Source of the DNA: a virus
Reading direction: 5' to 3' (one strand)
DNA length: 61,189 nucleotides
Virus record (IMG/VR): IMGVR_UViG_3300045454_000015
Span: 1 to 61,189 of that record
Below, piece by piece: positions 27,917 to 38,958 of the stretch. Position 1 is the stretch's first letter. Every line of letters starts with the position of its first letter. The translations under genes and the position numbers were made by a program. The notes below the pieces were generated by a model. It did no database searches. It saw nothing but the letters and a program-made list of their open reading frames with translations, and was not told the origin of the DNA.

Positions 27917-28030
27917 AGGCATAGCGGCCAGGAGAAGGGCGATGAGGATTGCCCCGACAACGGCCCCGGGGAGCCCGAACTCCCACACCAGGGCGGCGAA
28001 GCCGAAAACGATGGAGGCCACCGCGATCAC
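27911..28030 (-). CDS. Small hydrophobic protein, 39 aa (below the track cutoff)
   Basis: Hand translation gives (V)IAVASIVFGFAALVWEFGLPGAVVGAILIALLLAAMPR. GTG in a GTGA overlap with the giant gene stop. High GC3. Confidence 0.45.
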   Translation of the reverse strand: MIAVASIVFGFAALVWEFGLPGAVVGAILIALLLAAMPR

Positions 28031-31000
28031 TGCAAAGCCTCCCGGATGCCAGGGCGCAAGTGACGCGGCGCGCTTTCTTCCATGCGCTGGGCTCTCGGCT
28101 TGCGCATCTCCCGCACGCGCTTGAGGATGCCCGGCATGTTCACGCGGATGGGCATTTCGGGGTTCTTGGCGTTCCAGTCGGCCAAGCGGTCACGCGCATC
28201 CTGTACCCGCTGCGCATCCCCCTCGAACAGGCCTTTGGCCCAGTCCTCGCGGATGCGCTTGCTAACAGCGTCGTATTGGGCTTGCGCCTCGTACTGGGCT
28301 TGGGCTGCACGTGATTCACGGGCCACGCCAGCGGGTTGCAGTCCCAAGCCCTTGAGCACGGCATCCACCGCGTCAACGTCAGCCACCTTGTAGTCACGCG
28401 AGTTGCGGTACATGCCCGTCTGGTACATATCCAGGGCCTTGGCGGCATTGCGCAGTGCGATCGGCCTCACTTCGCCCTTGAGAGCATCCCGCACGAAGCT
28501 GCCGGCCACCCCGAAGGTTTCCAGCACCTCGTCTTCCTTGCGGCTTTCGCTGGCCTTGAGCACACCCGTGCCGGGCAGGAGGTTGCCGAGGCCGAGGCGG
28601 GCGGACACGTCGAGTGGCACACCCGGGAGTGTACTGAAACCGTGCTGCAAAAAGTCAGCCGCGCCCTGCCCCAGCGTGCGCGCCACCATCGCGTTCATGG
28701 CCTGCTTGGTGCTGAACTGGTAGCCCATGCCCTGGGCGATGCTGTCGAGCACGTCCTGCAGGTCTTCCGCGAACGGCAGGCCCTGGGAGCCGGCCGCGAC
28801 GACCAGGATGGCCAGGGCCAGGGCGCGCTCCTTGGGCGGCAGCCGCTTCAGGAACTCCACGTACTGGATGCTGAAGGTCTTGAAGGTGAACAGCGTCGCG
28901 CCCACCGCGCCGCGGCTCCAATCGGGTCGGTTTCCGCGGTTAAAGACAGACTGCGTCTCGTCGACCGCGTCCTCGGCGAACTTGAAGGGGTCGGCCATGC
29001 CCTGCTCGCGCGCCGTGTTGTAGGCGGCGATGAAGGCCACCCGGCGGTTGAACACCTCGGCCATCTGGAACATGGAGCCCCAGGCCGACAGCAGCGAGCG
29101 CACATACAGGTTCGAGCCCAGCGACCGGCTGGCCTCGGCCTGAAGCTGGAACACCTCCTGCGGCTTGATGACGCCGTCCTTCTCGGCGCGCGACAGGGCC
29201 GCGGCCAGTTCGGCGTCGTCCACCTTCTTGGCCAGCGCCATCTTCATGGCTGCCGTCACCCGGGAGCCGGCCTTGGCCGGGCCACCGAACTGGCTCAGAT
29301 AGGGGAAGGTCTGCGCGAAGGTCTGCGTCAGGTTGACCATCGCCGACGCGATGGAGCCACCGATGTACTGCACGAACAGCAGCGACCGGATGCCCTGCGC
29401 TTCCTCCTTCGGGTCGTTGACGTAGTCGGCCAGCGCGCGGGCCTCGTCCTGCACGTCGCCCTGGCGGATGTTCTCGACCGCGTCGCTGATCCGCTGCGAG
29501 TGCAGTGCGCGCGACGCGGCGCGGGCGTTGCTGGTGATGAAGGCGGCCAGCACGCGCGAGCCGTCGTCGTCGAAGCCCTCGATGCCCTTGCGGCGGATGT
29601 GACGCTTCAGGGCCGACTGCTCGGCCACGGCGTTCTGCAGCCACTTCTGCATCGCCTCGTTCTTCTCGACGCCGAGCATCTCGGCGAACAGCATGGCCGT
29701 CTCCGGCGACACGCCCTTCAGGGCCTCGAACTGCTTCTGAGGCATGACGCTCTGCGACACCTGCAGCCCGCTCTCGCGGAACTTGCGCGCCGCCTTGTTG
29801 GCCTCGGCCTGGCTCTCGTACAGGCCGAAGTAGACGCGCTGGCCTTCGCCGTCGATCACGTCCACGGCGTAGGGGCCGAAGCGCATCAGCGGGGCGTAGC
29901 CGGCCGCCTTGAGGTCGGCGATGCGGTTGACCTTCTCGGCGATGGTGGCCTGCAGCTTGCGCAGGTCTTGCCGGCGCTGCATCAGGTCCGGCGTGTGCTG
30001 GTTCGGCTGGCCGTCGAGGGCCTTCTGCACCGCCTCCAGCCGGCGCTCGACGGCCTCCTTGACGGCCCGCACCGCGTCGCCCGGGGTGTCCGACGAGGCG
30101 GCGCGGCGCAGCGCGTCCAGCATCGTCTCGTAGTCGGTCGGGTTGGCCGACACCATTTCCGGTGCCATGACGCTGACCTGCCGGTACAGGTCGGCCGCGA
30201 GCATGTTGTCCAGGCTCTGGTCGATGGCTGCCCGGCTCTGGCGGTACATCTTGATCGCGCGCTCGCTCATGCCGCGCTGACGGAGCTCGTCGTCTGTCCA
30301 GACGATCCCGCCAGGCTCGGCGCTGTCCGGGTCCACCGGCACGGCGCGGCCGTCCTCGTCGCGGGTGTAGCGCAGCGTGCCGTCGAACAGCGCATCGGAC
30401 GCGGCCTTGATGTCGGCCTTGCGCTGCTTGTAGGCCGCCGGGCTGGCCAGCGTCGGGGCGAGCTTGGCCAGGTCGGAAAGAGTTTCCACCTGGGGCAGCA
30501 TGTCCGGGGCCATCTCCGCGGCCACCGTCGCCATGCGGCTCACGTCCTTCATGAAGTCCTGCACCGCGTAGTAGGCGCGGCCGAACTCCTTGTTGATCTT
30601 GGCCTTGTGGAACTGCGTGCCGATGGTGCGGTGCCACACGCGGTTGAAGCCGCGCTGGGAGGTCGTGCGGTCGGTCAGCCAGTCCTGCACCCCCTGGGGG
30701 ATGGTGTCGCGCAGCACGGCGCGGCTGAAGCGCGTCGGGCCTACTCCTCCGCCTTCACCTTCTTGCGCGCGGCCTGCAGCCTGGCCTTGTGCGCGGGCGT
30801 CATATCCTTCACGCGCGCCTCGACTTCCTTGCGCACCTTGGCGCGGTGCTCGGCGGTCTGCCGCTGCGAAGGTTTGCCAGTTGAGGATGCCATCGTAGGC
30901 CCCTTCCACGTTCTGTTGCGGGATGCCCATGCGCTCCCAGAAGCCTCGGGCCTCGGGGACGATGTTGCTGATGTTGAGGTCGGCGGTCGGGTTGGCGGCC

Positions 31001-34000
31001 AGCAGGGTTTCGATCACGGCACGGCCGACGCCCTGGCCGCGGCCATTGTCGGCGTAGACCTCGATGTCCAGCAGCGACACCGGGCGGCCATTCTCCACCA
31101 GCAGTTCCACATGGCCCAGCACGTCGAAGCCTTCGGCGGGCATGATGGCGTAGCTGACGACCTCCTGGCCTGGCTCGGGGATGACCTCGAAGCGCTCGGT
31201 CGGCTGCGGGGCGGCCAGAACCACGGTGCTGCCGGTGTACTCGGGGAAGCCTTCGGGGGTGCGGGTGGTGGCCACCGTCGGGCGGTCTGGCGTGCGGCGG
31301 CTGAACAGCGGCAGGCCGTTCGCGGCGCGCTGGCGCATGGCGGGGGTGATGGTGAAGCCGGGTTGCTGCATCGGCTTGTAGTCGGGGTTCGCGCGATCCT
31401 GCACCCTGCCGCCGACGCTGGGGCCAACGTCCACCATCTCCACCGCCCCGCCGCCGGTCTTGCGCAGCACGTCCTTCAGCGCGGCCGGCACGATCTTGTC
31501 GTAGAAGGCGCGCATGCCTTCGCCGCCGACCTTGAGGCCGTTGCCACGCATGTCGCCGTAGGGCTGGCCCATGATCCGCTCGGCAACGTCTTTGCCGACG
31601 ATTTCGTCCAGGCGCTTGCCGTCGAACTCGTTGCCGATCGAGCCTCCACCCATTGAGCCGACTGCGCCGTCCGGCTGCAGCATGAACTCGATGTCGTTGC
31701 CATTGTTCGGCGTGATCGTGACGCGCTTCTCGGTGTCGTTGCCGCGGCCAGTCCACGCGATGCTGCGAACCTGCTTGCTCAGGTCATACCGCTCCGCGCT
31801 CTGCTCCCCGTTCACGAACGCCACCTTGTCGTAGCCCTCGTCCACGGCCATCTTGACGATGCGCTTCAGGGCCAGGGCCACCCACTTGTCGGTCTTGTCG
31901 ATGAAGGGGGCGGCAGGCACGCCGGCACGGTTCGGCGCCGTTTCCGTGGCGCTGCGGCTCTGCTCGATCACGCTCCACAGGGCGCCGTCGCGCTTGACCA
32001 CCAGCCGGTTTTCCATGCCGGGCTCGCGGTTGCGCTCCAAGAACGGCTGAAGCTCGCGCATCTTGGCCTGCGCCTGCGCCTCCGTCTCCAGCGTGTCCAG
32101 CGTGTCGGCGTCGAACCACTCGCGCGACTGGGGGATCATGTCAGTGCTCAGGCCCTTGCGGCGGGCGTCCTGGGCGTAGTCGCTCTGGATCTCCTCGACG
32201 AACAGCACGCGCTTGCCGTCCGCGTCGGTGCGGTCGTTGAGGCGGATGTGGGCCAGGACGTTCTTCTGGCTCCAGTGACTGGACGTGTAGTTTGTCTTGT
32301 CAGCACCAAGCGGCCCGCTGGTTCGCATGAAGTCGCGCGCCAAGTCCTGAGCGCGGTCTAGCGTGTAACCAGTCCTTAGCTCTCTGCCGTCAGGGAACAC
32401 GACATTGAAAAGACCGTCTCTCCTTTTAACGATTTTCGGCTGCGGCGCCTCCTTCTGTGGCAGCGTCAGCAGCACCTCCCGGTAGTTGGTGCCGCCGGGG
32501 AGGGTGTATTGGGCGTACTTGGTTGTGTCTGCCGGGACATCGGCGTTTTGCTGCCACTCGGCAATCGCGTCTTCTGGCGAATTGCCCGTGCCCTGAATCT
32601 CTCCGTTCTGGTCAAAGAGCGCGTACACATACTCAGTGTCTGCGCGCACTACCCATCCTCGGGGCAGGCTGGCTTTTGGGCTGCCGCCCAGCACCGTCTC
32701 TGTCACCCGCACGCCGTTGGCGCGCAGGTAGTCCGCCACGGCCTCACGCGACACCTTGCCGGCCTGCATGCCAAGCCAGTCCTCAACGCCGCTCCAAGTC
32801 ACCTCGTCCTGCTTGACGGCGCCCTTGGCCACCAAACCGCGCAGCAGCGTGCGCCAGCCGTCGGCGTTGGCCATCTTCTGGTTCGCGCCCACGATGGCGC
32901 GGTACAGCGGAGAGAAGAAGATCACAGGGTCGGAGTCTCGCCCGAAAACCGTCCCTGCCGTCCTGAACGTAGCCGCCCCGTTGACGCTGACGCTCTCGGC
33001 GGCCAGCACGAAGGCAGCGATGTCGTTGTCGGTCCAGCGGGCCGGGTCAATGGCCGCGGCCACCGTGGGCAGGTTCGCGCGGCGCAGGCTCACGGCAGTC
33101 TGGCGCAGCCACCGGCGGATCGCCGCGATCATGCGCTTGAAGCCGGTGAGCTTGGCCACCTGCTCCACCGGCATGTCGGCCAGTGCTTCCTCCACGGCCT
33201 CGACCCGCGACGAGGCCAGCCCGTCGTCGAGCTTGGCCTGGGCCGCCTGGCGCAGCGCCGGGTTGTCCTTCCACATGGCGTGCATGACCGCGCCCATCTC
33301 GTCCCCGGCACCGAGCATGGACCGGATGCCGTGGTGGCGGACCTCGTGGTAGCCCACCACGAAGCGCATGCGCTCGACGCTGGCGATGTTGCGCGGGAAG
33401 ACGTGGATCTCGCCCTCGTGGTAGGCCGCCTCGACATCGAACTCGGCGCCCTGGCTGCGGATGATGTCGCGCAGGGCCTTGGGCGCCTGCTGCAGCGTCT
33501 CGTGGATGTGGATCGGCGGGGCCTTGGGCAGCGCTTCGCGGATGGCTGCCGTGACGGCGCGGGCGTCGTCCATAGGCACACCGCCGCGGCGGGGGCCGGT
33601 GGAGCGGCTGAATGCTGCGTCGCCATCTCCAGCCGGGTAGTGCTTGTCCAGCACCGTCTTCGCGGCTCGGCGGGCGTTGTCGGTCAGTTGCCGCTGCCAT
33701 GCCTCGTTCTTCGGGCTCCACTTGAACCCGTTGGCCTTGAGGTCTTCGCGCACGGCGTCGCTCGGCTTGCCGTCGAAGATCAGGCGCAGCCTGTCGTCCT
33801 GCGCGTCCTCCACGATCCGCACGCCGTCACGCTCGGACTCCTGCGGGCCTGCCTGCGCCGCGGCCATGCGCGCCTCGGCGTCGGCCAGTCGCTCGCGCAG
33901 CCGGCGAATCTCGGCGTTGTTGTTGGTCAGGCGGTAGTCCGGGAACCCCTTGCGGCCGGCGAAGTCGCCCTTCTTCAGTTCGGCGATCTGCTCGGCCGTG

Positions 34001-37000
34001 AATCCCAACTCTTCCAGCGCCGCATCGTCACCCTTGCGGATGGCGACGTTCGCGGCCTTCATCGTCTCCTGCAGTTCCTCGCGCTCGGCAAGGCGCAGGC
34101 GCACGCTCTCCAGCTCGGACTCCGGGCTGTTGTCGATGGGGCCACGCGCGGCGCGGATCAGGCGCTTGATGCCGCGGGCAAGGTACTGCTGCGCCTCGTC
34201 GGCGCGCTTGCGCTCCGTTTCCATGCGCTTGCGGTTGCGCTCCACCGGGAAGCGGGCCGGGCCTGCAATCATGGATGACATGACGCGGCTGCGGGCCTCC
34301 AGCGTGCGCATGTAGCGTGCGCGGTAGCCCTGCGCCACGTCGGTGAACACCTCGCGGATGCGCTCTACGGCTTTCTCGTCTTGGCCGGCAATCCGTGCGG
34401 CACGGCTCCAGGCATCCTCCAGCGCAGCCATGAACGACTGCTGCTCCTGGCCAGCGCGGACTTCCGGCACATGCGACGTGCCCCGGTGCGCGTTCTGCGC
34501 CACCTCGCGCGGGATGCCAGCGACGGCGGGCATTGGCGCGGGTTCTGCCGGCGCCTCCCCCTCTGCTTCCGCCTCGGCTTGGGGCTGGGCGGCGGGGGCG
34601 GCCTTGCCCCACGCCATGAACGCATCTACTGCGGCCTGCGCATCCTTGGTTCGGTTGTAGACCGAGGTGGCGGCGTCCAGCGCCTCGTCCAGCGCATCCT
34701 CGCTCTTGAAGTCTCGGCGCAGAATCGGCAGGCGGTCGTACTTGACTTCAGCCGGCACGTTGCGGCCTTCATCCAGGGCCTTTCGCAGAGCCTTATCCCT
34801 CTCGATTGACCACAGAGCGAAGTTGCCACTGCCGAACTTCGCCGCGGCGATGGCATCTCGCAACTGGTCGTCCGTGGTGGCCCATGCCGGCTGCGTCAGC
34901 TTCAGGTCAAGCAGACTTCCGCCGTACTCGATCGTCAGCGTGGTGTCGTCTTCCTCCGGCTGCACAGCGGGCGCGGCATCCACCTCCGGTTGCGCGGCAG
35001 GGGCCTCGGCTTCGGGCTCGAACTCACCCACCGCTTCAGCGGTCGGCGTCAGGCCCGCGACCTTTCCAAGGCGCTCCTTGTCGCCCTTCAGCACCTCGGT
35101 GATGTCCAGGGCGCGCGCCGCGGCATAGTCCACTGCGGCTTGAGGGTCGCCTTCGTCAATCATGTTCTCGACTGCGGCCTTGGCCCCTCCGCTACCCCCC
35201 TCAACGCCGAACGTGCTGCCGGCCTCCTTGCGCATGCCGTAGCCGTTGACGCGAGGCGCCACGAACACGGGGAGCTTGTCGCTGAAGCCCGGGGACTTCT
35301 CCACCTTGCGGCGGAAGTCCGCCAGGGCCTCTCGGGTGTTGAGGATGGTGAAAGTCCCGTCGCCCGGCACCTTGATCTTCACGGTGTCTGGTGGTCTGAC
35401 CTTGCCCTCGACGTCCATGCGCCGCAGCAACGTGGCCAGTTGAGTGCGAGCCGCTTCCGGACCGCCGTTGAGCGTGCCGACCAGCTTGTTGCGCGTCTTT
35501 CCGGTGCCGCTGCCGTCGTAGGAGGTGTCGCGCACCTCCCAGTTCCCGTCGCTCGACTGCCGAGCATCGACAGAAAGCGTGCGGTCGCCGAACCTTCGGA
35601 ATCCGCTGATCTCCTTCTTGCCCCTGCGGGTGACGGCTTGACCGACGGCGATATCTGCGTTCAAGACTTCCTCGGTCGGAGCCTTCTCCATCGCTGCGTC
35701 GATCAACCGCAGCGCCTCGCGCTTCATCGTGGAGCGCGGCACGTCCTTGTTCTCGGCCGCCTTAGTGATGGCCTCGTTCACCACCGCCCGGTTCACGGGC
35801 TCGGCGGGCTCGCCAGGGTCTTTGTGGGTTGCCTGCGCCTCCAGCGTCACCGCGCCCGTCGGTCGTAGTGCTGGTTCCTGCTGCGCGCCGCGGCGAGCAA
35901 TGGCCACGATCTCTCGCGCAGTCGCTTCAATAAGCATCGAATCGGAAGGAGCCTTGAACTTTCCGTTGCGCTTGACGCTCTTGATCTTGGCGTTGGCGCG
36001 ACGCTCGAACTCCTTTTCTCCGACAGTAGCGATGGCCTCGCGCATGACTTCAACAGTCGGAACATCATTGATGGCGTTGATCTCCTCCATCGTCGGGCCG
36101 TCGTAAACCTCTGGCGCTGGCCCGTCCTGCTCAGCATCCGACCGCGCCCCCTCATCCCACCCGGCCAGCCATTCGGCCTTCTGGGCCTCGTTGAGTGTGT
36201 CCGGCGGCGTGGCCGGCTCGCCGCGGGCCTGCGCCTTCTTGCCGCGCAGGCGCGGGTCGCGCTGATCGCGCCCGCGCTCGATGGCCGGCGTGCCCACCCG
36301 GGACTCGACCAGGTTGCCCAGCGACATCTCGTCGTTGGCGTTGAGCCCATAGGACTCGGCCACCTTGGCACGCTCTTCGACGTAGGCGTCGTAGCCCTGC
36401 TCGCGCAGCACTTCGGCCAGGCGGTCGGCTTCCACGTCCGCCGGTGCCCGTCCTTGACCGGCTCCAACGGCACGGGTCTTCGCGCGCGCAATGAAGCCAC
36501 CCGTAACCGGCACCACCTCATGGCTGTCCGACAGGCCGCGCTTGTTCACCTCGCGCTGGGCGGCCATCTTCGTGGCGAAGGGCTCCCCGCCTTTGCGGGT
36601 GACCTCTACCCCATCGGCTTGTACGGCGGGGGCTCCGGCATCGGCAGGTCCTGGGGCTCGGGCTGCATCGCCCTCCACTGCCGCTCGCGCTTGACCTGCC
36701 GGGGCTTGGGTTTCGGGCTGGCGGGCTCGGGTCGGTGCGTCCTGGACATCACGGGTCTGGGGCTCCTGTGCTCGTCGGCGCAGGGCCGACAGTTCTCGGG
36801 CGGCGGCCATCATGCCCTGGCTGTCGCCGGCCTCCTTGGCGGCGTCGTAGCGGGCCGTGAGGGTCTCCTCGGTCAGTGCCGCGTCATCTCCTGCGGGTCC
36901 AGCTCCACCAGCCGCAGCCGGCGCAGCATCGGCCGGAACTCGTCCGGGTACGGCTCCTCGGGGTTCAGCAGCCGGTCGTCCATCAGCACCCACGCCTCGG

Positions 37001-38958
37001 CCTGCGTCAGCACCCCTAGCAGCACGGCCTCCTCCAGGTCCTCGTCCAGCTCCCATCGCCACGTCATTGGCCTGCTCCTTGCGCACGACAAAGCCGCCCT
37101 CCACGGGCACCACGGCGCCGCCATCCTTCTTGGCCGCGCGGTCGGCCGCCATGCGGGTCTTGAAAGGCTCGCCGCTGGGGTTCAGGGTGTCGCCCGGGCG
37201 CACCATGCGCGCCTGGGCGGCCTCCACGTCGGGCGTCAGGCCCAGCTCGTCGCGGCGCTGGCGCTCGGCGGCCGCCTCGTTCTGACCCTGGCGCGCGCTG
37301 ATCTCGTCCGCCCGGGTTTCCGGGGCCGCGCGGCCTGCACCGTCCACCCGGATCGTGCCGGTGGGGGCGGTGTCCAGCCCGATCTGGGGCACCCCGGGCG
37401 CGGCGCCGATCTGCTCGGGGCGCTGGTTGGCCCCGACGTTCGGGCGGCTCGGGATGGGCCGCAGCAAGGCTTCTCCGACCCCGCGCTCGGCCAGCTCCAG
37501 CAGGCGCGAGCGGGTGAGGTCTGGCAGGTCCACATCGGGGCGGTCGGCCAGCGAGGTGTAGTAGGTGATCTCGTTCAGCGCGTCATCGCCGAAGCGCTCA
37601 CGCACCTGCTCGCGCACGCGCTCGTCGGCCAGTTGCTCGCGCAGTGCGAGCACCCGGTCACTGAAAGCCGCGTCGGGCACGAACTGCGCCGTACCCTCCT
37701 TGCCCGGCTGGGGCGGGGTCTGACGGCCCGTCGGCACACCCCGGCGCACCACCTCGGGCGTGGAGCGGCCGGTGAAGTCGCGCAGGCCCTGCAGGTCGGA
37801 CTGGGCCTGCGCCTCCATGCGCGACAGTGCAGCGGCCTCCTGCTCTTCGGTGAGGCCAGCCGCCGAAAGGCCCGGCTCCTGGCCAGCAGGCGCGTCAACC
37901 ACGGGCGGCACCACCGGCGCCGCAGGGTCCTGTCCGCCGGCTTTGACGGCACGGGTCAGCGGCCCGTCGTTGGGCGCGGGCTCCACCGGCGCGCTGGAGA
38001 ACGCCGACACCCCTCCACCGAGAAGCCCGCCGGCCGCGCCCTCAAGCGCTGCCTGCCCGGCCACGCCCTGCCACGTCGGCACTTCGAACCCTTCGCGCTG
38101 CAGGGCCACGTTCGAGGCGTAGCGCTCCTGCCCACCCTGAACCGCCTCCGGGATGCCTTCGGCCACCGCACCGGCGGCCACGCGGCCCGCCAGCCCACCC
38201 GTGGCGCCCCCGCGCCCGATGATGCGCTCGATACCCGTCGAGCCGGCAGCCGCGCCTAGGCCGGCACCGGCGGCGATGTTGCCCTGGTTCGGGCCGTCAT
38301 AGGCCTGCGCTTCAGCGGCGCGGGCGGCGGCTTCCTCCGGCGGCACACCCGCCTCCAGCAGCCGGCGCTCCACCGCTTCGTAGATCTCGCCCTTGACCAC
38401 GCCAGCGCCCTGCACGGCACCCATGCCGGCGGTGGCCACGGTGCGCGCGAGATTGGCCTGCCCCAGGCCGGGGATGGCGGCCATGGCGACGGTCGGCGCC
38501 ATCGTGCCGGCGGCCTCCAGCAGCGTGTCCAGCGGGGCTTCGTAGAGCGCCCCGAGGTTGGCCTTGATGCTCTCCCAGGTGGAGCCCGATTCGTCGGCCT
38601 CCTTGATGCGCTGCGCGCGGCGCTGGCGCTCGGCCTTGCGGTAGTCGCTCTCCAGCGTGCTCAGGCTGTCCCGGGCGCCGCCCAGGGCTTCGGACACGGC
38701 GTTGTCGGCGCCGAAGGCATCGGACACCATCTTCACGCCCGACACCAGCCCGCGGCCCAGGGCCACGCCGGAGTCGCCCAGGCTGCGCAGCAGGCCGGGA
38801 TCTTCGGGCATCGGCGCCTCGAATTTCACCCCCAGACGCTCGGCCAGCACGGCCTTGTCCACCTTGGGGTAGTAGATGCGCTGAACGACGTCGATCAGGT
38901 GGGCGTCATCGAGCTGCGCCAGGTGGGGCAGCTTCTGCCGGAGTTGCTTGATGTCCAT
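28027..38958 (-). CDS. Giant polyvalent virion/ejection protein, 3,643 aa
   Basis: Single ORF. HEVRH zincin-like motif at 33334..33348, GNAT RGQGVGRAV at 31015..31041, PLMRFG (PLxRFG domain) at 29875..29892, and a hydrophobic C-terminal third. Confidence 0.8.
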   Translation of the reverse strand: MDIKQLRQKLPHLAQLDDAHLIDVVQRIYYPKVDKAVLAERLGVKFEAPMPEDPGLLRSLGDSGVALGRGLVSGVKMVSDAFGADNAVSEALGGARDSLSTLESDYRKAERQRRAQRIKEADESGSTWESIKANLGALYEAPLDTLLEAAGTMAPTVAMAAIPGLGQANLARTVATAGMGAVQGAGVVKGEIYEAVERRLLEAGVPPEEAAARAAEAQAYDGPNQGNIAAGAGLGAAAGSTGIERIIGRGGATGGLAGRVAAGAVAEGIPEAVQGGQERYASNVALQREGFEVPTWQGVAGQAALEGAAGGLLGGGVSAFSSAPVEPAPNDGPLTRAVKAGGQDPAAPVVPPVVDAPAGQEPGLSAAGLTEEQEAAALSRMEAQAQSDLQGLRDFTGRSTPEVVRRGVPTGRQTPPQPGKEGTAQFVPDAAFSDRVLALREQLADERVREQVRERFGDDALNEITYYTSLADRPDVDLPDLTRSRLLELAERGVGEALLRPIPSRPNVGANQRPEQIGAAPGVPQIGLDTAPTGTIRVDGAGRAAPETRADEISARQGQNEAAAERQRRDELGLTPDVEAAQARMVRPGDTLNPSGEPFKTRMAADRAAKKDGGAVVPVEGGFVVRKEQANDVAMGAGRGPGGGRAARGADAGRGVGADGRPAAEPRGAVPGRVPADAAPAAAGGAGPAGDDAALTEETLTARYDAAKEAGDSQGMMAAARELSALRRRAQEPQTRDVQDAPTRARQPETQAPAGQARAAVEGDAARAPGPADAGAPAVQADGVEVTRKGGEPFATKMAAQREVNKRGLSDSHEVVPVTGGFIARAKTRAVGAGQGRAPADVEADRLAEVLREQGYDAYVEERAKVAESYGLNANDEMSLGNLVESRVGTPAIERGRDQRDPRLRGKKAQARGEPATPPDTLNEAQKAEWLAGWDEGARSDAEQDGPAPEVYDGPTMEEINAINDVPTVEVMREAIATVGEKEFERRANAKIKSVKRNGKFKAPSDSMLIEATAREIVAIARRGAQQEPALRPTGAVTLEAQATHKDPGEPAEPVNRAVVNEAITKAAENKDVPRSTMKREALRLIDAAMEKAPTEEVLNADIAVGQAVTRRGKKEISGFRRFGDRTLSVDARQSSDGNWEVRDTSYDGSGTGKTRNKLVGTLNGGPEAARTQLATLLRRMDVEGKVRPPDTVKIKVPGDGTFTILNTREALADFRRKVEKSPGFSDKLPVFVAPRVNGYGMRKEAGSTFGVEGGSGGAKAAVENMIDEGDPQAAVDYAAARALDITEVLKGDKERLGKVAGLTPTAEAVGEFEPEAEAPAAQPEVDAAPAVQPEEDDTTLTIEYGGSLLDLKLTQPAWATTDDQLRDAIAAAKFGSGNFALWSIERDKALRKALDEGRNVPAEVKYDRLPILRRDFKSEDALDEALDAATSVYNRTKDAQAAVDAFMAWGKAAPAAQPQAEAEAEGEAPAEPAPMPAVAGIPREVAQNAHRGTSHVPEVRAGQEQQSFMAALEDAWSRAARIAGQDEKAVERIREVFTDVAQGYRARYMRTLEARSRVMSSMIAGPARFPVERNRKRMETERKRADEAQQYLARGIKRLIRAARGPIDNSPESELESVRLRLAEREELQETMKAANVAIRKGDDAALEELGFTAEQIAELKKGDFAGRKGFPDYRLTNNNAEIRRLRERLADAEARMAAAQAGPQESERDGVRIVEDAQDDRLRLIFDGKPSDAVREDLKANGFKWSPKNEAWQRQLTDNARRAAKTVLDKHYPAGDGDAAFSRSTGPRRGGVPMDDARAVTAAIREALPKAPPIHIHETLQQAPKALRDIIRSQGAEFDVEAAYHEGEIHVFPRNIASVERMRFVVGYHEVRHHGIRSMLGAGDEMGAVMHAMWKDNPALRQAAQAKLDDGLASSRVEAVEEALADMPVEQVAKLTGFKRMIAAIRRWLRQTAVSLRRANLPTVAAAIDPARWTDNDIAAFVLAAESVSVNGAATFRTAGTVFGRDSDPVIFFSPLYRAIVGANQKMANADGWRTLLRGLVAKGAVKQDEVTWSGVEDWLGMQAGKVSREAVADYLRANGVRVTETVLGGSPKASLPRGWVVRADTEYVYALFDQNGEIQGTGNSPEDAIAEWQQNADVPADTTKYAQYTLPGGTNYREVLLTLPQKEAPQPKIVKRRDGLFNVVFPDGRELRTGYTLDRAQDLARDFMRTSGPLGADKTNYTSSHWSQKNVLAHIRLNDRTDADGKRVLFVEEIQSDYAQDARRKGLSTDMIPQSREWFDADTLDTLETEAQAQAKMRELQPFLERNREPGMENRLVVKRDGALWSVIEQSRSATETAPNRAGVPAAPFIDKTDKWVALALKRIVKMAVDEGYDKVAFVNGEQSAERYDLSKQVRSIAWTGRGNDTEKRVTITPNNGNDIEFMLQPDGAVGSMGGGSIGNEFDGKRLDEIVGKDVAERIMGQPYGDMRGNGLKVGGEGMRAFYDKIVPAALKDVLRKTGGGAVEMVDVGPSVGGRVQDRANPDYKPMQQPGFTITPAMRQRAANGLPLFSRRTPDRPTVATTRTPEGFPEYTGSTVVLAAPQPTERFEVIPEPGQEVVSYAIMPAEGFDVLGHVELLVENGRPVSLLDIEVYADNGRGQGVGRAVIETLLAANPTADLNISNIVPEARGFWERMGIPQQNVEGAYDGILNWQTFAAADRRAPRQGAQGSRGAREGYDARAQGQAAGRAQEGEGGGVGPTRFSRAVLRDTIPQGVQDWLTDRTTSQRGFNRVWHRTIGTQFHKAKINKEFGRAYYAVQDFMKDVSRMATVAAEMAPDMLPQVETLSDLAKLAPTLASPAAYKQRKADIKAASDALFDGTLRYTRDEDGRAVPVDPDSAEPGGIVWTDDELRQRGMSERAIKMYRQSRAAIDQSLDNMLAADLYRQVSVMAPEMVSANPTDYETMLDALRRAASSDTPGDAVRAVKEAVERRLEAVQKALDGQPNQHTPDLMQRRQDLRKLQATIAEKVNRIADLKAAGYAPLMRFGPYAVDVIDGEGQRVYFGLYESQAEANKAARKFRESGLQVSQSVMPQKQFEALKGVSPETAMLFAEMLGVEKNEAMQKWLQNAVAEQSALKRHIRRKGIEGFDDDGSRVLAAFITSNARAASRALHSQRISDAVENIRQGDVQDEARALADYVNDPKEEAQGIRSLLFVQYIGGSIASAMVNLTQTFAQTFPYLSQFGGPAKAGSRVTAAMKMALAKKVDDAELAAALSRAEKDGVIKPQEVFQLQAEASRSLGSNLYVRSLLSAWGSMFQMAEVFNRRVAFIAAYNTAREQGMADPFKFAEDAVDETQSVFNRGNRPDWSRGAVGATLFTFKTFSIQYVEFLKRLPPKERALALAILVVAAGSQGLPFAEDLQDVLDSIAQGMGYQFSTKQAMNAMVARTLGQGAADFLQHGFSTLPGVPLDVSARLGLGNLLPGTGVLKASESRKEDEVLETFGVAGSFVRDALKGEVRPIALRNAAKALDMYQTGMYRNSRDYKVADVDAVDAVLKGLGLQPAGVARESRAAQAQYEAQAQYDAVSKRIREDWAKGLFEGDAQRVQDARDRLADWNAKNPEMPIRVNMPGILKRVREMRKPRAQRMEESAPRHLRPGIREALQ
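36873..37067 (-). CDS. Embedded +1-frame acidic protein, 64 aa
   Basis: AAGGAG lies 7 nt before the ATG. 62 of 64 codons end in G/C, versus about 23 of 65 in the overlapping giant-gene frame. MTWRWELDEDLEEAVLLGVLTQAEAWVLMDD... Confidence 0.6.
   Translation of the reverse strand: MTWRWELDEDLEEAVLLGVLTQAEAWVLMDDRLLNPEEPYPDEFRPMLRRLRLVELDPQEMTRH

Follow-up and report, generated by a model that had tools for sequence, protein, structure and literature searches.

Evidence for a conserved small gene nested in the +1 frame of a giant phage virion-protein gene

The DNA analyzed here, IMG/VR virus record IMGVR_UViG_3300045454_000015 (61,189 nt and 67% GC, referred to throughout as the window), carries on its minus strand a giant open reading frame (ORF) for a DarB-like protein of 3,643 residues and, wholly enclosed by it on that strand but in another frame, a complete start-to-stop ORF for an acidic protein of 64 residues. 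The reading that we favor, and to which we would assign a probability of roughly 0.8, is that the stretch is dual-coding, that a separate 64-residue protein is made from it, and that the giant frame has overprinted a small gene older than itself at this place; with less confidence, we infer that the small protein may be a dedicated partner of the giant one. This would be textbook overprinting in reverse, the small gene being, as far as comparison of the relatives can tell, the older coding sequence.

In the mechanism that we envisage, ribosomes that start at the ATG at 38958 would read positions 37068-36874 in frame 0, giving an Ala/Gly-rich flexible spacer between the ~630-residue N-terminal region and the ~2,950-residue C-terminal region of a virion-associated protein of DarB-like/polyvalent type. 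Other ribosomes would load at an internal AAGGAG, start in the +1 frame at the ATG at 37067 and stop at the TGA that ends at 36873, and their product would be a free, acidic, three-helix protein of 64 residues. By the comparative evidence the small gene is the older tenant of the site, across which the giant frame was extended when the coding regions upstream and downstream were merged into one ORF, and from the merger onwards the giant frame has been kept clear of stops. Nesting of this kind would tie the small protein to the giant one both in inheritance and in transcription. We take the giant frame to be the secondary reading because it is the small frame that has normal codon usage and encodes a conserved protein, and because free-standing copies of the small gene exist.

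The nested ORF and its protein family

An earlier note on this DNA, made from the letters alone, had drawn attention to a loss of codon bias in the giant frame that is matched by a gain in the +1 frame, and the recount bears this out. Over the nested segment the fraction of codons ending in G or C (GC3) is 0.36 in the giant frame (23/64) and 0.95 in the +1 frame (62/65), as compared with 0.86 and 0.72, respectively, over the whole giant gene. A sliding 45-codon scan of each frame agrees: the giant frame has a mean of 0.86 over the gene (standard deviation 0.11), its deepest dip anywhere in the gene is the nested segment, with a minimum of 0.31, and the +1 peak of 0.98 coincides with that dip. 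From the codon that overlaps the nested TGA the giant frame is back at 90-100% GC3, which is the immediate recovery that the note had described. The nested ATG, the AAGGAG with its 7-nt spacer, the TGA and the 64-residue translation were all recovered on the minus strand where the note had placed them (Table 1), and both of the ~45-residue modules said to flank the segment could be located in the giant frame. The first of these modules ends in the Shine-Dalgarno (SD) sequence, whose AAGGAG is read in the giant frame as Lys-Glu within ..GGFVVRKE; the module also stands directly before the nested gene in several related loci (L001, L005/L006 and L008, the loci of relatives being numbered with an L). 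The giant-frame peptide across the segment is of low complexity, again as noted, with A20 G17 R7 P7 D6 among its 65 residues.

Table 1. Coordinates of the giant ORF, the nested gene and associated features (positions are those of the window unless a related locus is named).
Feature	Position	Strand	Details
Giant ORF, frame G	28027..38958	-	3643 aa, start ATG 38958
Nested small gene, frame S (G+1)	36873..37067	-	ATG 37067 to TGA ending 36873
Nested gene product			64 aa, acidic, isoelectric point (pI) 4.3, 7.8 kDa; translation MTWRWELDEDLEEAVLLGVLTQAEAWVLMDDRLLNPEEPYPDEFRPMLRRLRLVELDPQEMTRH
Shine-Dalgarno AAGGAG	37075..37080	-	7-nt spacer to nested ATG 37067
Giant-frame spacer over nested gene	36874..37068	-	Ala/Gly/Arg/Pro-rich, NDVAMGAGRGPGGGRAARGADAGRGVGADGRPAAEPRGAVPGRVPADAAPAAAGGAGPAGDDAAL
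Giant-frame stretches around spacer junctions			GGFVVRKEQANDVAMGAGR; GDDAALTEETLTAR; EQANDVAMGAGR
Module copy 1, giant frame	~37075..37173	-	GEPFKTRMAAD..VVPVEGGFVVRKE; GEPFKTRMAADRAAKKDGGAVVPVEGGFVVRKE; ends in SD
Module copy 2, giant frame	~36478..36588	-	GEPFATKMAAQ..VVPVTGGFIARAK; GEPFATKMAAQREVNKRGLSDSHEVVPVTGGFIARAK
ORF2, second +1 island	36606..36749	-	ATG..TAG, 47 aa, Pro-rich, MSRTHRPEP...PPYKPMG*, MSRTHRPEPASPKPKPRQVKRERQWRAMQPEPQDLPMPEPPPYKPMG
ORF3, third +1 island	30741..30893	-	50 aa, basic, MASSTGKPSQRQTAEHRAKVRKEVEARVKDMTPAHKARLQAARKKVKAEE; GC3 0.86 vs 0.48
Other +1 ORF in a relative's giant ORF	L013 1478-1711
Other +1 ORF in a relative's giant ORF	L023 12176-12625
Other +1 ORF in a relative's giant ORF	L012 899-1117
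Other +1 ORF in a relative's giant ORF	L019 10823-11032

A word-indexed search with the nested ORF returned five homologues of 64-65 residues that are 70-97% identical to it, at E = 1e-19 to 1e-33, a level of homology that chance could not plausibly produce. Two profile searches, the first against 1.84 billion cluster representatives and the second with a 25-sequence profile, enlarged the family to ~35 protein clusters, all of which are free-standing proteins of 62-86 residues; in none of the ~35 clusters does the family occur as an in-frame domain of a larger protein. Its members follow the pattern MSA..L..LE.AV..GALT..EAW.LQD..L, and the hidden Markov model of the family gives the window ORF a score of 102 bits. 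All of them open with Met at one and the same alignment column, typically as MSA.., and their ends fall within a few residues of one another. A strong SD is found 5-9 nt before the conserved start at 13 of 17 loci, as against 3.7% of background positions in the same loci (P ~5e-16). Nearly all relatives have some SD at this spacing, and the giant-frame residues encoded there vary by locus (KE, QE, QGG and others).

The substitution pattern likewise follows the small frame. The closest relative of the window is L001, at 94% nucleotide identity. Of the 13 substitutions that separate the two within the small gene, 11 are at third positions of small-frame codons, and the small protein is 97% identical whereas the giant-frame peptide is 81% identical; the small-frame protein is the better conserved of the two in 14 of 15 locus pairs. 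These comparisons show that the nested +1 ORF is a real gene, under purifying selection and with initiation signals of its own. The note had proposed just such an independently initiated small gene within a linker of the giant gene, and to that proposal there can now be added a family with conserved start, SD and stop, nested in more than 20 lineages. It might be argued instead that the ORF is an artefact, either a chance ORF of the kind that GC-rich genomes hold in large numbers, many of them long and spurious, or the product of paired frameshifts in assembly. We would give this view next to no weight, as homologues reach E = 1e-33, the two-frame layout is shared by more than 20 independent assemblies and selection is specific to the small frame.

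An open giant frame across related loci

Wherever the family occurs within a giant ORF, it is always nested in the +1 frame and the giant frame is free of stops, and this holds in more than 20 lineages that range from 44 to 71% GC. At the loci recovered with full context the giant ORFs span 1,404 to >4,018 residues from stop to stop (contig GC 44-66%), of which 496-1,169 residues, and mostly 500-680, lie upstream of the small gene; in the window the upstream part has 630. In this upstream part the giant frame is the coding frame, with a GC3 of 0.80-0.95 in GC-rich loci and no stop, and the frame maps show the bias switching to +1 exactly over the small gene and then returning to the giant frame. 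The N-terminal giant-frame proteins are related in chains (E = 5e-130 for L022 and L026; E = 2e-4 for the window and L026), and the parts of the giant protein downstream of the small gene are highly mosaic among relatives. Comparison of the L001 and window giant proteins, for example, gives 93% identity at residues 592-958, an unrelated middle, and 48% identity at residues 2754-3101, and nucleotide identity between the window and L005 jumps from ~80% to >95% near position 36740.

The distribution across these loci indicates that the nesting is old within this group of phages and that the window did not gain the 195 nt by recent insertion. The note had left it open whether the small gene was inserted or overprinted, and had suggested alignment as a check on whether the 195 nt are an indel: the segment proved to be present in every relative found via the small protein, so that recent insertion can be set aside and overprinting retained, with the qualification that it is the giant frame that would have been laid over the older small gene.

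Copies outside giant genes are also found. At L003/L004 (1224-1421) and L007 (198-395) the small gene, 73-75% identical to that of the window and with its SD kept, is free-standing, with a divergently transcribed gene for a GntP-family permease on one side and one encoding a signal-peptide-like protein on the other, apparently on a bacterial chromosome, and in each of these three loci the frame equivalent to the giant frame contains 1-2 stops. A different arrangement is seen at L009, a contig of 7,706 nt on which the small gene is directly followed by a gene for a 2,028-residue ART-PolyVal protein, with a tyrosine integrase encoded on the other strand; here the giant frame is open to the start of the contig. 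A gene pair of this type may also be carried by integrative elements other than the structural modules of tailed phages. Four further loci (L013-L016) have a divergent gene upstream and little or no N-terminal giant part.

How often a frame would stay open across so short a gene by chance was estimated from each locus's own giant gene, along which windows of small-gene length (61-70 codons) were scored for openness of the -1 frame. A null built by synonymous-codon resampling, which gave 0.12-0.47 per lineage, was rejected as miscalibrated, since real genes of the window were open in 58% of segments and it predicted 38%. The empirical openness is 0.51 for the window and 0.06-0.37 for most other loci, and in AT-rich lineages it is 0.031 (L028), 0.008 (L027), 0/199 (L022) and 0/187 (L026). 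The giant frame is nonetheless open in 20 of 20 lineages as against 4.1 expected, and for the four AT-rich lineages alone the joint chance of openness is ~6e-9, figures that treat related lineages as independent and whose exact values, although not the conclusion, are weakened by this. Because of this excess, and because the GntP-adjacent copies do carry stops, the stop-free state of the giant frame across the small gene is best explained as maintained by selection. The suggestion in the note that the host frame is held open as a spacer fares well in this light: the frame is free of stops across relatives, and the peptide that it encodes there is of low complexity and poorly conserved.

One might instead suppose that there are three separate genes here, that the continuous frame of 3,643 residues is an accident of high GC, and that the downstream part is self-started or reinitiated. 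It is true that the -1 frame of a real gene of the window is open over 65 codons about half of the time, that in truncated relatives gene callers report a small gene and a separate large one downstream, and that L013-L016 largely or wholly lack the N-terminal part. Openness in every one of the 20 lineages, with a chance level that falls below 1/190 among the AT-rich ones, is hard to square with such an accident, as are the stops gained by copies outside giant genes. Moreover, as the region upstream codes in the giant frame without a stop, ribosomes must enter the segment in the giant frame. Nor do the downstream parts look as if they had starts of their own: within -60 to +150 nt of the small-gene stop, a giant-frame start with a strong SD occurs at only 1 of 22 loci, and 2 of the 22 have no giant-frame start codon at all in this region. 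In the lineage of the window, giant-frame conservation (ALTEE.L.ARY.AAK.AGD..) begins at the very codon that overlaps the TGA. We regard three independent genes as improbable. Dual coding also predicts that change at small-frame third positions should be held down, and in 5 of the 6 more distant pairs these positions are 2-4 times less diverged than the third positions of the flanks.

Another way to obtain the same pattern would be recoding, in which the ribosome translating the giant gene shifts by +1 near 37067 and back again near 36873, such that the 64 residues would be a folded domain of the giant protein or the C-terminal end of a truncated product, and no protein of their own. The normal codon usage of the +1 frame and its foldable sequence would suit this, and SD-like sequences can stimulate +1 shifting, as in prfB. 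Yet the family has its Met at the same column, a nearly constant end and an SD at the 5-9 nt spacing of initiation, its ~35 clusters are all free-standing with none in frame within a larger protein, and chromosomal copies stand alone. Neither boundary has a slippery motif, the CAC (His) codon before the TGA cannot re-pair in -1, and a search of 36300-37500 against Rfam gave no match. Finally, a domain that is shifted into would not need an open giant frame, yet that frame is open everywhere. Recoding appears to us less probable still than three independent genes, and we return below to a separate small protein encoded within the giant gene.

The host protein and the role of the small protein

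The C-terminal 900 residues of the giant protein match phrog_11358 and phrog_21376 in PHROGs, a DarB-like PHROGs match covers residues 2987-3367 (E = 9e-22), and there is in addition a primase-like stretch. Polyvalent proteins, which Iyer et al. reportedly described in 2017, occur in mobile elements such as phages and conjugative elements and are giant mosaics of many domains. A search of the window giant protein against Pfam found no polyvalent-protein domain and only a sub-threshold SPOR match, so that the word 'polyvalent', which the note had used for the host protein, is borne out only in part, by the DarB-like match and by the relatives, one of which bears an N6-methylase and a helicase (Eco57I/N6_Mtase + ResIII), as DarB does, and another of which, L009, shares ART-PolyVal (PF18760) with the polyvalent proteins.

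The giant gene lies in a phage structural module, with genes for terminase, portal, major head, internal virion and tail proteins, and L019, L023 and L026 share with the window its neighboring tail, internal-virion and virion-structural genes. With its structural genes, including those for the tail fibre and the giant virion protein, on one strand, the window has the appearance of a tailed-phage genome that is complete or nearly so. In size, GC content and possession of a giant DarB-like gene it resembles the Bcep22-like podoviruses, among them JC1 (61,182 bp, 65.4% GC; PMC9144972), and in these phages giant DarB-like proteins are virion proteins (PMC9144972).

The small protein was modeled by AlphaFold2 from 33 sequences as three helices, with a predicted local distance difference test score (pLDDT) of 78. 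There is one copy of the family per locus, and in phage contexts it is always found with the giant protein, and in a virion module wherever the neighbors can be identified. The homologue of L001, P0001 (64 residues, L001 121-315), is labelled 'serine protease inhibitor ecotin' in its JGI record. We do not adopt this identity: neither the small protein nor its relatives have a match in Pfam or NCBIfam, a protein of 64 residues that is predicted to be all-helical does not fit it, and the label is likely an annotation error.

It is tempting to speculate that the small protein is a partner dedicated to the giant one. The partners of DarB in the Dar system of phage P1 are encoded by separate genes that are not known to be nested. 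That system (the giant DarB with Ulx, DdrA/B, Hdf and DarA) and the window may nevertheless be likened in that each would pair a giant DarB-like protein with a small accessory one, and the analogy, on the side of function, is a conjecture. In P1, DarB is incorporated and active only with the aid of small proteins that are packaged along with it, Ulx among them (PMC12810830). It is because of these partners of DarB, and because the small protein is always linked to the giant gene, that we favor a partner role over others, although tentatively, and at odds that we would place somewhat below even. As a helper or keeper concerned with folding, silencing or packaging, the small protein might assist in assembly and packaging, or it might keep its giant partner in an inactive or unfolded state up to the moment of loading into the capsid.

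The alternative is that the small protein is an independent effector, such as an anti-defence inhibitor, a DNA mimic or a regulator, that hitch-hikes in a tolerant linker. Like many anti-defence proteins it is small and acidic (pI 4.3); relatives of the giant protein bear domains of anti-restriction type (methylase and helicase, ART-PolyVal, DarB-like); and the free-standing copies on bacterial chromosomes suggest that it can act solo. It has, however, no similarity in sequence or fold to a known inhibitor or mimic, and for a DNA mimic in particular no fold or family match speaks in favor. Its nested position, moreover, is conserved while the flanking giant sequence is mosaic, and the linkage to the giant gene persists. 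We consider an independent effector, the main rival on the side of function, to be unlikely, and less likely than a dedicated partner.

Several points weigh against the reading as a whole. The closest pair, the window and L001, shows no lowering of synonymous divergence, and where divergence is lowered this could stem from mosaic recombination or from RNA structure. As the giant frame of a window this rich in GC would be left open about half of the time by chance, the case rests on the relatives, and these are in part linked by descent. That both frames are translated is deduced from evolution only, and an extra, separate translation of the C-terminal part may arise by termination and reinitiation at the stop of the small gene. 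As the free-standing copies on chromosomes attest, the small protein can exist without a giant gene. As to the proposed function, what supports it is obligate linkage and nothing further. The small protein has no match in Pfam, PHROGs, NCBIfam or PDB sequences, and a Foldseek search of its model against PDB gave nothing below E = 2.7. The best fold match in BFVD is A8HNW3, an unnamed viral protein of 110 residues, at E = 0.14; this is the only fold match of high probability (0.99), with a template-modeling (TM) score of 0.66 and 28% identity over 64 columns.

Known nested genes, annotation and further islands

Genes embedded in other genes are not new to phage biology. In lambda and many other phages, Bcep22-like podoviruses included, Rz1 is a small and complete +1 gene inside the larger, same-strand gene Rz, and both are needed. 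The pair in the window resembles Rz/Rz1 in that a complete +1 gene with its own start lies wholly inside a gene on the same strand, but it is unrelated in sequence and function, and the two differ in polarity: both frames of Rz/Rz1 encode functional, constrained proteins, with Rz1 taken to be the one added later by overprinting, whereas in the window it is the nested gene that is conserved and normally biased and the host frame that is a poorly conserved spacer, the opposite of the situation with Rz1. The hosts differ in size as well, with 1,400 to >4,000 residues in the nesting described here and ~150 for the host of Rz/Rz1. A class of embedded spanins has been described for phage JC1 (PMC9144972), and in viral overprinting more generally, as in phiX174 (A/B/K and D/E), two proteins are made from the same nucleotides and synonymous substitutions are rarer where the genes overlap (PMC8227390). 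In classical overprinting the new frame is the atypical and accessory one, whereas in the window the atypical frame is that of the large host gene, which would indicate that flanking coding regions were fused across a small gene that was already there.

A literature search found no prior account of nested genes within polyvalent or DarB-like genes. What is new here, given that embedded genes themselves are known, is the protein family, the class of host (giant virion proteins), the inverted polarity and the conservation of the nesting over 44-71% GC. If our reading is correct, the window would offer a case, validated by comparison, where the secondary reading belongs to the large host frame and not to the small gene, and it would illustrate one route by which giant phage proteins may grow, namely by fusion across an intervening gene. 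It would also supply a candidate partner for the poorly understood giant DarB-like/polyvalent virion proteins, and it suggests that islands of codon bias in the linkers of giant ORFs are places in which further hidden genes might be sought.

The family is nearly invisible because gene callers forbid nested genes, and the manner in which its relatives came to light reflects this. Pattern scans of viral, genome and metagenome collections with a close alignment (A2) gave no confirmed relative, and the loci with full context, on nine IMG/VR viral contigs and seven metagenome contigs, were recovered by scans with the broader alignments A3 and A5. Among GenBank phages no match was found by tblastn with three family members, by blastn with positions 36000-38000 or by tblastn with the first 1,000 residues of the giant protein. 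Four independent contigs (L001, L002, L008 and L009) start 93-120 nt upstream of the small gene, and it is truncated relatives of this sort that gene callers divide into a small gene and a large gene downstream. The scarcity of the family in protein databases is probably an effect of ascertainment, the small gene being called mainly where the giant ORF has lost its upstream part. The contig starts near the small gene might alternatively reflect breaks in assembly where mosaic segments join. A physical end of the DNA at this place was rejected, as long contigs show the giant ORF running on upstream.

The nested gene is not the only island of alternative-frame bias in the window. A second, ORF2, begins 120 nt downstream of it and has a GC3 of 0.96 as compared with 0.54 in the giant frame, which uses the rare codons GTA CAA GCC GAT GGG GTA in this region. 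It has an AGGAG motif 13 nt upstream and is conserved in L001 and L005/L006, and an ORF with a similar end (..PYKPMG*) is found just upstream of the small gene in L009; no homologue of ORF2 was found in the databases. ORF2 is a candidate for a second nested gene, but the composition of an Ala/Pro-rich linker could also produce such an island. A third island, ORF3, occupies the linker just before the conserved C-terminal block of 900 residues (phrog_11358) and is absent from the closest relative, L001. These further islands show no detectable paralogy to the family of the nested gene.

Nested genes in the linkers of giant ORFs may be common. A broader proposal would be that a broad group of uncultured tailed phages build their giant ejected proteins by fusing coding regions across live small genes, that the linkers so formed hide obligate partners missed by every annotation pipeline, and that a nested protein of this kind is needed to fold, silence or package the giant protein; we offer it as a conjecture that we ourselves would expect to fail somewhat more often than to succeed. 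The candidates that bear on it are the present family, a second one that we call family B, ORF2, ORF3 and the ORFs at L013 1478-1711 and L023 12176-12625. Family B is represented by nested genes at L010 883-1077 and L017 533-721, which encode 62-64 residues with the pattern ..SLEQQAKAWL..AQGWW.SD..EPLRSEVLR..; it is unrelated to the first family, and its copies, each with an SD and an ATG, lie ~240 nt downstream of that family's nested gene and again in the +1 frame. The L010 and L017 copies are homologous to one another (E = 4e-19). The four other +1 ORFs listed for the giant ORFs of relatives in Table 1 all show a strong inversion of codon bias, as at L013, where an ORF of 77 residues has a GC3 of 0.83 as compared with 0.36 in the giant frame.

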